A stretch of DNA of 64,000 nucleotides from an uncultured delta proteobacterium (GCA_963804955.1 CAWDSQ010000024.1:128001-192000); one strand, 5' to 3'. Shown: positions 33,063 through 37,026, numbered from the stretch's first letter. A program made the numbers and translations. Notes: a model not told the origin generated them from the letters alone.

Positions 33063-34241
33063 GTGAATCGAAATGATGAAAAACTTGAAGTGAGGAAACT
33101 TACAGTAGAGTTAGCCCTTGCCAATAAAGAACTTGCTCTTCAAAAAGAAGAGAAGAGAAAACGGGCAGCAGAGTTAGTCATTGCCAACAAAGAACTTGCT
33201 CTTCAGAAAGAAGAAAAAAGAAAACGGGCAGCAGAGTTAGTCATTGCCAACAAAGAACTTGCTTTTCAGAACGAAGAGAAAAGAAAAACGGGCAACAGAG
33301 TTAGTCATTGCCAACAAAGAACTTGCTTTTCAGAATGAAGAGAAAGAAAAACGGGCAGCAGAGTTAGTCATTGCCAACAAAGAACTTGCTTTTCAAAATG
33401 AAGAGAAAGAAAAACGGGCAGCAGAGTTAGTCATTGCCAACAAAGAACTTGCTTTTCAGAAACGAAGAGAAAGAAAAACGGGCAGCAGAATTAGTCATTG
33501 CCAACAAAGAACTTGCTTTTCAAAACGAAGAGAAAGAAAAACGGGCAGCAGAATTAGTCATTGCCAACAAAGAACTTGCTTTTCAGAACTGAAGAGAAAG
33601 AAAAACGGGCAGCAGAGTTAGTCCTTGCCAACAAAGAACTTGCTTTTCAGACTGAAGAGAAGAGAAAACGGGCAGCAGAGTTGGTCCTTGCCGACAAAGA
33701 ACTTGCTCTTCAGTATGACAAGAGAAAAAAAGCAGAGGTATTGGCAACGCATGACCATTTAACAGGATTACCCAATCGAGTCTTGCTCAATGATCGCATC
33801 AATCAATACTTACTTCTAGCCAAGCGAACGAAGACATTGGCAGGTTTGATAACTTTAGACATAGATGGATTCAAACAGATAAATGATACTTATGGACATC
33901 ATATAGGCGATGTCGTTTTAATGTCAATTGCAAAACGATTAACTGAACTAATTCGGGAATCAGACACAATTGCACGTCTTGGAGGAGATGAGTTCATTCT
34001 GCTCGCTACAGAAGCCAAGAGTATGAACGATATCAAGAATCTCGCCAATCGTATTTTGAAGATTGTCCAAAATCCAATTATTGTGGGCAAACAAAAAATT
34101 ATGGTTAAAATTAGTATTGGCATCGCCTGCTATCCATCTAGTGGACAAACAGCCAAGACATTAATGAACAATTCGGATAAAGCCTTATATGCTGCTAAAG
34201 CACAAGGCAAAAACTGCTATGCAATTTGGGGGGTCAAATGA
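33063..34241 (+). CDS. Diguanylate cyclase with an N-terminal 21-aa tandem-repeat coiled coil (three +1 indels in the repeats)
   Basis: HDHLTGLPNR, DIDGFKQINDTYGH, RESD..ARLGGDEF, SIG, ALY.AK..GKN. Confidence 0.9.
33108..33740 (+). repeat. Coding tandem repeat, 10 x 63 bp (ELVIANKELAFQNEEKEKRAA)
   Basis: Units start at 33108, 33171, 33234, 33298, 33361, 33424, 33488, 33551, 33615 and 33678. Confidence 0.95.
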
Positions 34242-34353
34242 TATGTATATAAACTAAAGTACGTTGTTGACAAATTGTACATGCTTAAATCCCCCCGCTT
34301 CTGTTTTTAATATTTTAAACCGCCAACAACATATTAATTCTGGACAATAATTT

Positions 34354-34439
34354 AGTTCGTAGGGCGGGTGCTAACCCGCCATTTTTAATTCATGATAACC
34401 CTTATCTGACTTATTGCGCGGCGGGTTAGCACCCGCCCT
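34354..34439. repeat. GTAG-type REP doublet (REPIN-like), right arm interrupted by the IS
   Basis: GTAGGGCGGGTGCTAACCCGCC ... GGCGGGTTAGCACCCGCCCT|. Confidence 0.85.
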
Positions 34440-34539
34440 TCTATGAGGACCGTTGTCAAGCCTCGGGTTAATTTTTTTTGTTTTTTTCTTTCTTTATCTT
34501 TTGATACTCATTCCGTTTTGGCCGGTTGGGCTTGTCGTT

Positions 34540-34710
34540 TTCCGGGAACCTTGCCCGGAACCACCTTCTATCCGTGCCGGTATTATAACCGTGCATCCAC
34601 ATACTGCGTGCGCCAATTGGCGTCAGTCCAACCAGTTTAAGAAGCCTTCAATCTACAAAGACGGTGCTTTTAGACCCAGGGCGGGTACGAAGGGCTTCAC
34701 CAACTGGAAT
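34540..34710 (-). ncRNA. Predicted bridge/seek RNA of the IS110 element (boundaries approximate)
   Basis: Guide-like segments match the target (34678-34686, 34653-34657) and the donor junction (34599-34606, 34565-34571) within stem-closed loops. Confidence 0.75.
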
Positions 34711-34745
34711 GCCTATCAAATCCTTTTCCTCCTGTTGTATGTCCT

Positions 34746-35888
34746 TTATGCCATCTTCAGTATCGCGCCTTCCGGCACGATGTCGTGATCAACATACTTC
34801 CACAGCGCTATGAGCAGTTTTCTGGCCAGCGCCACGATCCCTATTCGCCTCATTCGCTTGTTGCCCCCTCCAAAGCGCTCATGAAACCACGTGCTTAGCT
34901 TACTGCCAGGCTGCCATCTCAGCCATCCCCAGGCTAGCTCTATCAGCAAAGCTCGTATCCGCCGATTGCCCGCTTTGCTTATCCCTTGCTCAATCTGCAT
35001 ATCCCCGCTACTGTAGGGCATTGGCGCAAGACCCGCTGCACCTCCCACCTGCTTCACATTCTTGAATTCCCGCCAGCCAAAAAACTCATAGATCAAATCC
35101 CATGAACTGATCGGCCCAATTGCCCGTATCCGGGCAAGCTTGCTTACCTTGCGCATTTGTTCAGGACTTGCCGCAAGCTGCCGCTTCTTTTCCTCTTGTA
35201 TCTGCCTCAGCTGCCGGTCCAGCACCCCTATCCGTTCATACTCCCGCTTCATCTCCTGCACGATATGCTCTGGCAGTTTGCTTCCATCCCAGGCTCGCAC
35301 TTCTTCTAGCAGCTTCAGAAATTTACTGCCTACCTCTGCATGTATCCCATACAATACAAGTAATGACTTTATCCGGCTTACATGTGCTCCCCGTTCCTTT
35401 AACAGCCGATCCCGCTCTCGGTTGAGTCGCCGTTCATCTTCCTGTTCCTGTGTCGGAACCCGTACCACACTCCAGACTTTCTGCTCTCCTCCCAAGTGCC
35501 GTATCAGCATGGTTAACAACTTTAACCCATCTACCCGGTCCGTCTTGGCCCGCCGATGCCGCCGGTTCACTTCGATACTGGCCGAGTCCACCACGATATT
35601 CTTTATCCCTATGCTCTCCAAATACCGATGTATCCAAAACCCGTCTCGTCCCGATTCATAACAGCTGTATATGGCGCAATCTTCATCCAGGCTAAAATGC
35701 TTCCGGGCCTTGACCAGCTCTTCCTTAAACTCTTCAAGATCTGCTGATGTTATTGTTCGCTCCCTCCTGCGTTGCCCGTCCCCAAACGTCAGGTTCCATT
35801 TCTTGTTGGACAGTTCAAGGGATATGTACAAAACCTGCTTACCTGTGCTATTCTTTGCCTCGGTTTGGATCATTTGATTGTTCGCCAT
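34746..35888 (-). CDS. IS110-family recombinase/transposase (intact ORF)
   Basis: SLELS, CYESGRDGFWIHR, RAKTDRVD, GLAP....SG, ISKAGN, ALARKLL. Confidence 0.96.
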   Translation of the reverse strand: MANNQMIQTEAKNSTGKQVLYISLELSNKKWNLTFGDGQRRRERTITSADLEEFKEELVKARKHFSLDEDCAIYSCYESGRDGFWIHRYLESIGIKNIVVDSASIEVNRRHRRAKTDRVDGLKLLTMLIRHLGGEQKVWSVVRVPTQEQEDERRLNRERDRLLKERGAHVSRIKSLLVLYGIHAEVGSKFLKLLEEVRAWDGSKLPEHIVQEMKREYERIGVLDRQLRQIQEEKKRQLAASPEQMRKVSKLARIRAIGPISSWDLIYEFFGWREFKNVKQVGGAAGLAPMPYSSGDMQIEQGISKAGNRRIRALLIELAWGWLRWQPGSKLSTWFHERFGGGNKRMRRIGIVALARKLLIALWKYVDHDIVPEGAILKMA

Positions 35889-35959
35889 GTTTGTCTCCTT
35901 TATGCTGAAAGTTATTGACGTGACTTTTTTAGCATATCCGAGACGTGACGCCTGTCAAA

Positions 35960-36020
35960 TGATCCTTTCCTTCATAGTATCTACCGGCTAATACTTGATC
36001 CTTTCCTTCATAGTATCTAC
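35960..36020. repeat. Direct duplication of the 25-bp IS end, tgatcctttccttcatagtatctac
   Basis: Copies at 35960-35984 and 35996-36020. Confidence 0.92.
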
Positions 36021-36028
36021 AGACTGTT

Positions 36029-36472
36029 TTAATCTTGCGCCAGAACTTTTTTGGCAATCATCCGTTTATAAATCCACTGTGAGATATTAATAAAATAAAC
36101 AGCATTGGCAAAAAGCATGCATGCGGCCAATCCGTTCTGGCCCCAGTTTAACCAGAGCCCGGCAAAATAGAAAATATACGATAAAATAGCCGCCAGATTG
36201 CCAACATCCTCCCAGAAGAATTCACGGCACATGAAATATTTATTATAGAACTGCTTCTCCCAAATTATACCGATTATGGTATTGACCCAAAGCAGCACAA
36301 AATTAATCCAGAAGGTGATCAGCGCGCCGGTCCATCCCTGGCCGGTGAGCAGGACACGCAGCACATAATACAAGCTCATGAATAAAATTAAAATCTGCAC
36401 CCCGCCTATCATCATCATCGCGCGGGTCAGCGGCGACGCGTCCTGCCGGGTCTTTTGTTCTGCTGTATACAT
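36029..36472 (-). CDS. bchF: BchF-like (3-vinyl bacteriochlorophyllide hydratase family) membrane protein
   Basis: MYTAEQ..R.DAS..T, G.IWEKQ...KY....EFFWEDV, Y.IN..Q; AGGAGG RBS. Confidence 0.8.
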   Translation of the reverse strand: MYTAEQKTRQDASPLTRAMMMIGGVQILILFMSLYYVLRVLLTGQGWTGALITFWINFVLLWVNTIIGIIWEKQFYNKYFMCREFFWEDVGNLAAILSYIFYFAGLWLNWGQNGLAACMLFANAVYFINISQWIYKRMIAKKVLAQD

Positions 36473-37026
36473 AAGGACCTCCTGTCGTTTATTTTCCAGT
36501 TCCAAGTTGTTTGGACACGGTTGCTTCGTCATTCATGCCGAACTGCTTTTCAACTCGGCGATATAAGCCGGTTGTTAATGCATTGACTTGATCTGATGTT
36601 CTATGGCCACCCCATACATGCTTAAGATAAAAGACCAGAAATTTCCGGTACAGCTTCATGGGCATGAAACGACGGAGAACGTCACATAGTATAACCTGTT
36701 CAGAACCAGTTGCTTTGAAAAAAAAGCTGGGAAATTCATCTGTTTATTTTGTTCGATCATGCGGTTTATTGCGCTGAACATGCAGCAGGTTCCAAACAAA
36801 ATTATAACAAGGTGTTTAAAAAAATTTGTTTCTTTAAGGAAAGTATAAATTCAACGGCTTTTGCTGTCAATAAAATAGTACATGCGCGTTTACAAATTTT
36901 CAAGCTTTGCATCTTACCAGTTTATCCGTCACAACGTACCCACATATTTTTAAATTTTCACCGTTGCGAAAAATTGCCTGGGAATAAATCGAAAACAGCA
37001 AACAATTTAGCCTCACAGTCCGTCAT

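Follow-up and report, generated by a model that had tools for sequence, protein, structure and literature searches.

How does an insertion sequence that sits at the same short sequence in every copy find its target? The question is raised by an element in a 64,000-nt stretch of DNA from an uncultured delta proteobacterium (GCA_963804955.1 CAWDSQ010000024.1:128001-192000), which we call the window and from whose first letter all positions are counted. An initial annotation, made from the sequence alone, had read an intact bridge recombinase of the IS110/IS1111 type there, inserted at the CT of a repetitive extragenic palindrome (REP), with a non-coding end that would encode left and right target guides (LTG, RTG) and left and right donor guides (LDG, RDG). 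Our follow-up indicates that this is very probably an active or recently active IS110-family insertion sequence with an IS1111-type layout, guided by its own bridge RNA. The guide-RNA mechanism of such elements was reportedly first described in 2024.

The ends of the element are fixed by its junctions and by an empty site. On the left, ...cacccgcc is followed by CT (34438-34439) and then by tctatgagg from 34440; on the right, catagtat (35973-35980) is followed by CT (35981-35982) and ac (35983-35984). The 4.26-Mb genome contains four full copies, 98-100% identical and with identical ends, whose flanks diverge beyond the shared span. All four lie between ACCCG[C/T]CCT and AC, with unrelated sequence further out, and GGCGGGTT[A/G]GCACCCG[C/T]CCT precedes each of them when read in window orientation. 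Across the four copies and the empty paralogous site, CT is present at both junctions and nothing else is duplicated. The empty site (C7:253035) is an uninterrupted, element-free paralogue of the site occupied by one of the copies (C30b) and reads ...GGCGCCCGCCCT-AC-gttct..., which makes the repeat half target sequence and puts the insertion between CCCT and AC; the element therefore spans 34440-35982, or 1543 bp with one CT. Both junctions are thus confirmed where the initial annotation had placed them, and so is site-specific insertion at the CT of a repeat, since all four copies mapped in the genome share the ACCCG[C/T]CCT-AC site.

The window element is located at the tip of the right arm of a REP-like inverted pair. 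A 20-mer census of the repeat returned 13 matches at up to 3 mismatches in the 4.26 Mb, some of them as inverted pairs; the site thus does lie in a REP-like repeat, while the term REP is to be amended to a small family of that size. The 9-mer ACCCGCCCT occurs five times in the window against 0.37 expected, a count that none of 100 shuffles reached; one occurrence is the guide itself and three are in REP-like arms. Three exact ACCCGCCCTAC sites are still unoccupied. One of them lies in the partner hairpin arm in the window (34361-34371, minus strand), as a perfect target 70 bp from the occupied one.

To characterize the RNA, we compared 34 loci that encode relatives of the recombinase at 39-58% protein identity, in which a segment of ~190 nt downstream of the gene is kept. 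A covariance model of this segment (R1), built on the structure from one relative (L019) with the pairs inside loops stripped, matches the window at 34513-34709 with 119 bits. Over the 4.26-Mb genome, R1 finds exactly the four element copies, with identical model scores, and no solo copies of the RNA. Over 29 sources it gave 26 matches, including a locus (L024) left out of model building; L030, L041 and L044 are without a match. In a model-fitted alignment (A2), which leans towards the structure, 77.8% of cells are paired compared with 35-48% in slid controls, with compensatory changes at 29 of 40 pairs; a plain MAFFT alignment gives 73.2% compared with 36-50%. The target-loop closing stem, its distal hairpin and two hairpins of the donor domain are well supported (75-97% paired). 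Of the two stems that had been proposed to enclose the target guides, gaagcc/ggcttc (helix 2) is genuine: it is conserved and shows compensatory changes. The other, ccagtt/aactgg, is able to form in the window copy, but its 5' strand in relatives apparently pairs with the RNA's 3' end. No bridge-RNA family was matched when 33800-36600 was scanned against Rfam 15 at E up to 1.

All four proposed guide strings were found at their coordinates, and we refer to them as guides A to D (Table 1). In element orientation the core reads AG. Guide A is then expected to be the reverse complement of AG plus 7 nt of right flank, and guide B to be 5 nt of left flank plus AG. Guide A matches 9/9 in the window copy. 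For the relatives, we compared each guide with its own and with other flanks, using shuffles that permute the flank assignment among relatives with unrelated insertion sites. The cognate mean for guide A is 7.43/9, against 4.15 for non-cognate flanks (21 distinct RNAs), and for guide B it is 5.78/7 against 3.87 (18 RNAs); for each guide, 0 of 20000 shuffles scored as high. Because the flanks lie outside the element, shared descent cannot produce this covariation, which the initial annotation had put forward as a check on its reading. In distant relatives (~40% identity) guide A fits less well, at 4-7/9. Two loci from one metagenome-assembled genome (MAG), L019 and L043, have guides A that read AUUACGGCU and GUUACUGCU and flanks that read ccgtaat and cagtaac, respectively; the two guide differences match the flank differences at the same positions, which looks like natural retargeting.

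The target guides were also compared in five held-out plasmid elements, from Cupriavidus necator N-1, Saccharobesus litoralis, Paraburkholderia dioscoreae, Paraburkholderia sp. FT54 and Novosphingobium resinovorum. A strong R1 match of 69-106 bits lies just downstream of the gene in four of the five; the Novosphingobium resinovorum element (L052) has a partial match only, of 12.5 bits, and is outside the guide count. In the remaining four, guide A agrees with the right flank at 8, 9, 9 and 8 of 9 positions and guide B the left flank at 7, 6, 5 and 4 of 7.

In the donor domain, guide D matches 7/7 in all 8 distinct forms, and it follows a change of the end that it reads, since six loci whose end is ATAGG carry AUAGGAG. 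The bases next to the right-hand guides are informative as well. In IS621, according to the available part of its structural report (PMC11208158), two bases 3' of each loop's right-hand guide pair with the other DNA following the initial strand exchange, and such handshake bases block the reaction if they pair with the cognate DNA. The AU that follows guide B is complementary to the donor bases adjoining the core (..AT-CT) and not to the CC of the target, and a corresponding AA/AA combination covaries in L026 and L050. The base immediately 3' of guide D pairs with the core-adjacent target base in 24 of 26 distinct elements, 18 by Watson-Crick and 6 by G-U pairing; shuffled means are 8.4 and 12.5, and 0 of 20000 shuffles were as high. 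These 26 elements exclude 8 rows that repeat the L012-type RNA or are without a right flank. Since this base covaries with the target, the donor domain meets target DNA, as the bridge model requires. The four-guide reading thereby stands, with covariation against flanks and ends in the relatives and with the held-out test.

The recombinase belongs to the IS110 family, as had been claimed. It matches the full-length equivalog NCBIfam NF033542 ('IS110 family RNA-guided transposase') with 171 bits against a cut-off of 140, and Pfam PF02371, the C-terminal Tnp domain, with E 1.8e-16. An AlphaFold2 model built on 14 relatives (mean predicted local distance difference test score, pLDDT, 81.1) has its best structural matches in the ISCro4 and IS621 recombinases in synaptic complexes, over 362-370 alignment columns with E ~1e-11, a template-modelling (TM) score of 0.58-0.66 by target length and 17-19% identity; comparison by sequence with the same proteins detects the C-terminal domain only. 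Both the RuvC-like DEDD domain and the Tnp serine domain are thus supported. In an alignment of 14 sequences, from which L029 was dropped because its match holds a stop codon, E25 (..LELS..), E78 (CYEAGRDGFW) and D120 are invariant and D117 is conserved in at least 90% (KTDRVD). S294, within GLAPMPYSSG (residues 286-295), is invariant in 14/14 and is aligned to ..YESGSS.. in IS621 and ISCro4. E25, E78, D117, D120 and S294 would correspond by position to the catalytic set D, E, D, D, S of IS621, whose first Asp is Asp11 in the available part of PMC11208158. E25 would then take the place of D11, a correspondence that comes from motif position and not from residue-level superposition; a phmmer search of the N-terminal 200 aa against the PDB returned a chance PilQ match only, and this correspondence is not shown by sequence.

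The element is intact, as described, in three of the four full copies, which keep the 380-aa open reading frame (ORF) and include the window copy. As a weak hint of RNA expression, a lake metatranscriptome holds a 151-nt contig that falls wholly within the RNA (34554-34704) with 1 difference; the recombinase ORF drew nothing from the same run. The sequencing runs were searched as contigs only, each representing at most a third of the sampled words.

Several observations weigh against a functional, RNA-guided element. Among the genomic copies, C30b carries one extra base and a disrupted recombinase ORF, so the description as intact does not extend to it. Support from RNA libraries amounts to two contigs, for which DNA carry-over is possible, and no circle-junction joint was seen in the contigs of 4 runs, which is uninformative either way as contigs drop rare forms. 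In the RNA, support for the outer two helices is poor (59% and 67% of cells paired), and folding 34441-34760 as a single sequence gives an uninformative z of -0.79, no more stable than shuffles. Guide B matches 4/7 at the window copy's own left-end junction. The target had been given as CTAC(A), and this junction reads CTACC; the A is present at two other copies and at an orphan left-end duplicate beyond the element, where the outer flank is CTACA and guide B matches 6/7, better than at the flank of the full copy. Guide C, previously called a partial match to the donor, matches TAGTATCT at 6/8 with a mismatch at the first core base, and in relatives it scores 4.95/8 against 4.07, the first core base being usually mismatched; this test is weak and confounded by shared descent because both partners lie inside the element. 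For the protein, Pfam PF01548 (DEDD) scores 25 bits, below its cut-off of 29, and the first acidic residue (residue 25, window ~35814-35816) is Glu in 14/14 sequences where IS621 has Asp11.

The imperfect and weakly covarying guide C leaves some room for the view, which we consider unlikely, that the target arm alone guides, in the manner of a short seekRNA, and that the segments matching the element ends are kept as protein-binding sites or through overlap with the subterminal repeats. A short seekRNA with two target matches is indeed the predominant species in the available part of Siddiquee et al. (PMC11187229). Three features of the donor domain argue against it: guide D tracks the right end's A-to-G change in each of the 6 loci that have it, the covariation of the following base with the target is sensible only if this loop meets target DNA, and the donor-domain hairpins are the best-conserved helices of the RNA, at 90-96% paired. 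It is very unlikely that the element is a relic, its RNA and protein nonfunctional and its guide matches fossils of past activity. One copy is frameshifted and one truncated, there is an orphan end fragment, and the circle junction was not seen in the contigs of the 4 runs, but three copies retain an intact 380-aa ORF with all conserved residues, the four RNAs have identical model scores in copies that are 98-100% identical, and three perfect targets are unoccupied, so the low copy number is not due to saturation. Least probable, and largely refuted by covariation, is a passive match in which a captured REP-like piece or repeat half is part of the element and the protein recognises the hairpin: a 21-bp repeat half does accompany all four copies, and REP-type hairpins are recognised by proteins in other systems, but the repeat half is part of the target, as the uninterrupted paralogous site shows, this half varies among copies (A/G, C/T) more than the element does, and relatives with unrelated non-REP flanks change the same RNA positions to match.

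Under the preferred reading of an element guided by its own bridge RNA, the 380-aa DEDD/serine recombinase would be made together with, and would bind, the structured ~190-nt RNA encoded just downstream. In the target arm, ACCCGCCCU and (U)GUAG would between them read both strands of ACCCGCC-CT-AC, the sequence at the REP-like hairpin tip, while in the second RNA domain CAGUAUGU and AUAGAAG would read the joined ends of the circle (..ATAGTAT-CT-TCTAT..). The two-base segments that follow guides B and D on the 3' side would pair with the other DNA once the first strands are exchanged, as in the IS621 handshake. Strand exchange by the recombinase would occur at the shared CT, and the circle would be inserted without target duplication.

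Four known systems come closest to the element. IS621, of the IS110 group, has the same fold over the full length at 17-19% identity in structural alignment, and both elements have a CT core and a REP target. The available parts of the IS621 reports describe, likewise in each loop, a 9-nt 5'-side guide with the sequence of the left half plus core, together with a shorter 3'-side guide complementary to the core plus right half (PMC11208160), as well as a two-base handshake 3' of the right-hand guides, including an identical A-U in the target loop (PMC11208158). In contrast to IS621 as covered by these sources, the window RNA lies downstream and not upstream of the recombinase gene, the module of gene and RNA has the opposite orientation with respect to the recombination sites, and there are subterminal inverted repeats of 9-10 bp. 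The protein also differs, with 380 aa against the 328-aa IS621 chain and Glu as its first acidic residue. The order LTG-RTG-LDG-RDG with a CT core, which had been equated with IS621, holds on the strand opposite the transposase (window plus strand) but not in element orientation, where the core is AG. In element orientation guide A is complementary to the top strand of the element and lies 5' of guide B. For IS1111-type seekRNAs, the available part of Siddiquee et al. 2024 (PMC11187229) states that the guide complementary to the top strand comes first, in 'reversed order'.

Several other features described in the same part of that source (PMC11187229) are shared with IS1111-family elements: a long non-coding region downstream of tnp in ISEc11, ISPa11, ISKpn4 and ISPst6 (here 306 nt, compared with 92 nt upstream), subterminal inverted repeats of 7-17 bp, a top-strand match 5' of the bottom-strand match, and a GL-P----S(t)G motif, here GLAPMPYSSG. 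It also confirms the target logo of ISPa11 and calls the family site-specific. The likeness to IS1111-family seekRNA elements is one to their descriptions there, the donor domain and handshake being read here by analogy with IS621. The transposase length of 330-350 aa given there does not include the 380 aa found here; owing to this length, we file the element as having an 'IS1111-like layout' and not as a proven member of the IS1111 group. ISCro4 is the best match both by sequence profile (E 4e-8) and by structure (E 2e-11), at 17-19% identity and with the C-terminal domain alone detectable by sequence; its recombinase structure was solved with the donor-binding loop (DBL), the target-binding loop (TBL), and target and donor DNA, as far as the available part of PDB 9t56 describes it. 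ISPpu9 of Pseudomonas putida is likewise an IS110-family element found in REP sequences with a small-RNA gene, Ssr9, downstream of the transposase gene; the available part of PMC12288879 reports that Ssr9 is dispensable for transposition and moves on its own, whereas the RNA described here carries guides and, by R1, has no solo copies in the genome. Named insertion sequences found in plasmids (ISSso6, ISEc45 and ISEc66 families) are only ~25% identical, and on that basis the element is plausibly uncharacterised.

The data support well that this is a new example of a known mechanism, with no new mechanism involved. As a data point, it extends the IS621 handshake rule to an IS1111-type layout and leaves the understanding of the mechanism unchanged. 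The case is a clean natural one, with junctions proven by an empty site and all guide and handshake positions readable, and the comparative set shows which RNA positions may vary, making the element a reasonable candidate for bench tests. To our knowledge, no natural system other than bridge/seek RNAs uses a single RNA to specify both recombination partners, and few members have been tested. It is conceivable, if rather doubtful, that the element and its 39-58% identical relatives form a distinct uncharacterised lineage of bridge recombinases, marked by Glu for the first Asp, a length of ~380 aa, a downstream RNA, a multi-branch donor domain and fast natural retargeting. The sources of these relatives are MAGs (Desulfobacterota-type, Myxococcota, Acidobacteriota, Chloroflexota and Gammaproteobacteria) and plasmids of Cupriavidus and Paraburkholderia. 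If real, this lineage would provide programmable recombinases independently of other sources, with a target code of 9+5-7 nt and with guides and handshake bases that are quickly retargeted in nature, as the two targets in one genome (L019 and L043) would illustrate.

Table 1 Features of the insertion sequence and its target in the window.
Feature	Position	Strand	Description
Insertion sequence	34440-35982	-	1543 bp including one CT core (35981-35982); span common to four copies
Right end of element, non-coding	34440-34745	-	306 nt, downstream of recombinase gene
Left end of element	35889-35980	-	92 nt, upstream of recombinase gene
Recombinase gene	34746-35888	-	380 aa; one long ORF; profile matches, alignment and predicted fold
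Bridge/seek RNA core	34518-34709	-	~190 nt; target-binding arm and donor-binding domain; covariance model R1
Target guide A (previously LTG)	34686-34678	-	ACCCGCCCU; identical to left target plus core; pairs with opposite strand
Target guide B (previously RTG)	34653-34659	-	UUUGUAG; UGUAG (34657-34653) complements CTACA
Candidate handshake guide, target loop	34651-34652	-	AU; directly 3' of guide B; IS621 definition
Donor guide C (previously LDG)	34606-34599	-	CAGUAUGU; compared with left-end terminus plus core, TAGTATCT
Donor guide D (previously RDG)	34571-34565	-	AUAGAAG; complement of CTTCTAT (core plus right-end terminus)
Candidate handshake guide, donor loop	34563-34564	-	GU; directly 3' of guide D; G pairs with target base adjoining core
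Subterminal inverted repeat, right-end arm	34441-34449		CTATGAGGA; partner 35968-35977, TCCTTCATAG on plus strand
TTGACA, right end	34454-34459	-	Candidate half of junction promoter, from sequence only
Sigma-70-like promoter, putative	35931-35958	-	TTGACA-16 nt-TATGCT; left end, upstream of recombinase ATG; 10/12 matches
REP-like inverted-repeat pair	34358-34439	+	Arms 34361-34381 and 34420-34439; 23-bp stem
Target left half ACCCGCC and core CT	34431-34437 and 34438-34439	+	End of right REP-like arm
Right target half AC	35983-35984	+	AC after CT in 4 full copies, truncated copy and orphan
Orphan duplicate	35996-36020	+	Last 21 nt of left end plus CT-AC; exact 25-bp copy, 11 bp beyond element

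The ends of the element share a subterminal repeat, CTATGA(A)GGA, which matches at 9/10 positions with one indel (read by eye) and begins 1 nt off the core at the right end and 3 nt off at the left. The CTATG..GG motif is kept at both ends in relatives, whose conserved ends in element orientation are AG-A..CTATG on the left and CTTGAC...CATAG[A/G]-AG on the right. The sigma-70-like promoter is the sole such site found in the element; it is suggestive only, as shuffles yield 1.6 sites per region. Circularisation would put the TTGACA of the right end 17 nt from TACTAT (35979-35974), a candidate junction promoter. CTTGAC is kept in relatives, but the spacing ranges from 14 to 20 nt and we do not claim that the junction promoter is conserved.

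Other candidates for RNA structure were set aside. RNAalifold on the MAFFT alignment returned 13 pairs only because several helices are misaligned there, and a structure drawn from the window copy alone, with 61.7% of cells paired in relatives, was replaced by the L019-based structure refined with the covariance model. Two sub-threshold Rfam 15 matches to mir-3923 are spurious and fall on the long REP-like hairpin. Among the RNAs of relatives, that of L024 (2638-2897) has a tandem duplication in the donor loop that splits guide D and still scores 86 bits with R1. One of seven L017 copies in its MAG diverges inside the target arm of the RNA, downstream of 2628, which suggests an insertion or rearrangement there.

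Some copies and fragments in the genome are irregular. The copy with the extra base and the broken recombinase ORF lies at G000 C30:23788-25354; its longest ORF starting with Met is 254 aa, which a real frameshift or an assembly error could explain. The truncated copy at G000 C7:252705-253060 consists of the left end and ~70 codons at 93% identity, and ~30 bp past it lies an intact REP-like target (...GCCCGCCCT-AC...) paralogous to the occupied C30 site. In the window, eleven unrelated bases precede the orphan left-end copy (35985-36020). Searches with this 11-bp spacer returned nothing specific as to its origin, and the 25-bp fragment could be a remnant of an earlier copy or of aberrant recombination.

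Outside the element, the upstream gene region at 33063-34241 contains tandem repeats (...RAAELVIANKELAFQNEEKEK...) that are readable in two frames. The ORF that ends this region contains GGDEF in its C-terminal part, as judged by eye, and from its sequence may encode a repeat-length-variable or frameshifted signalling protein.

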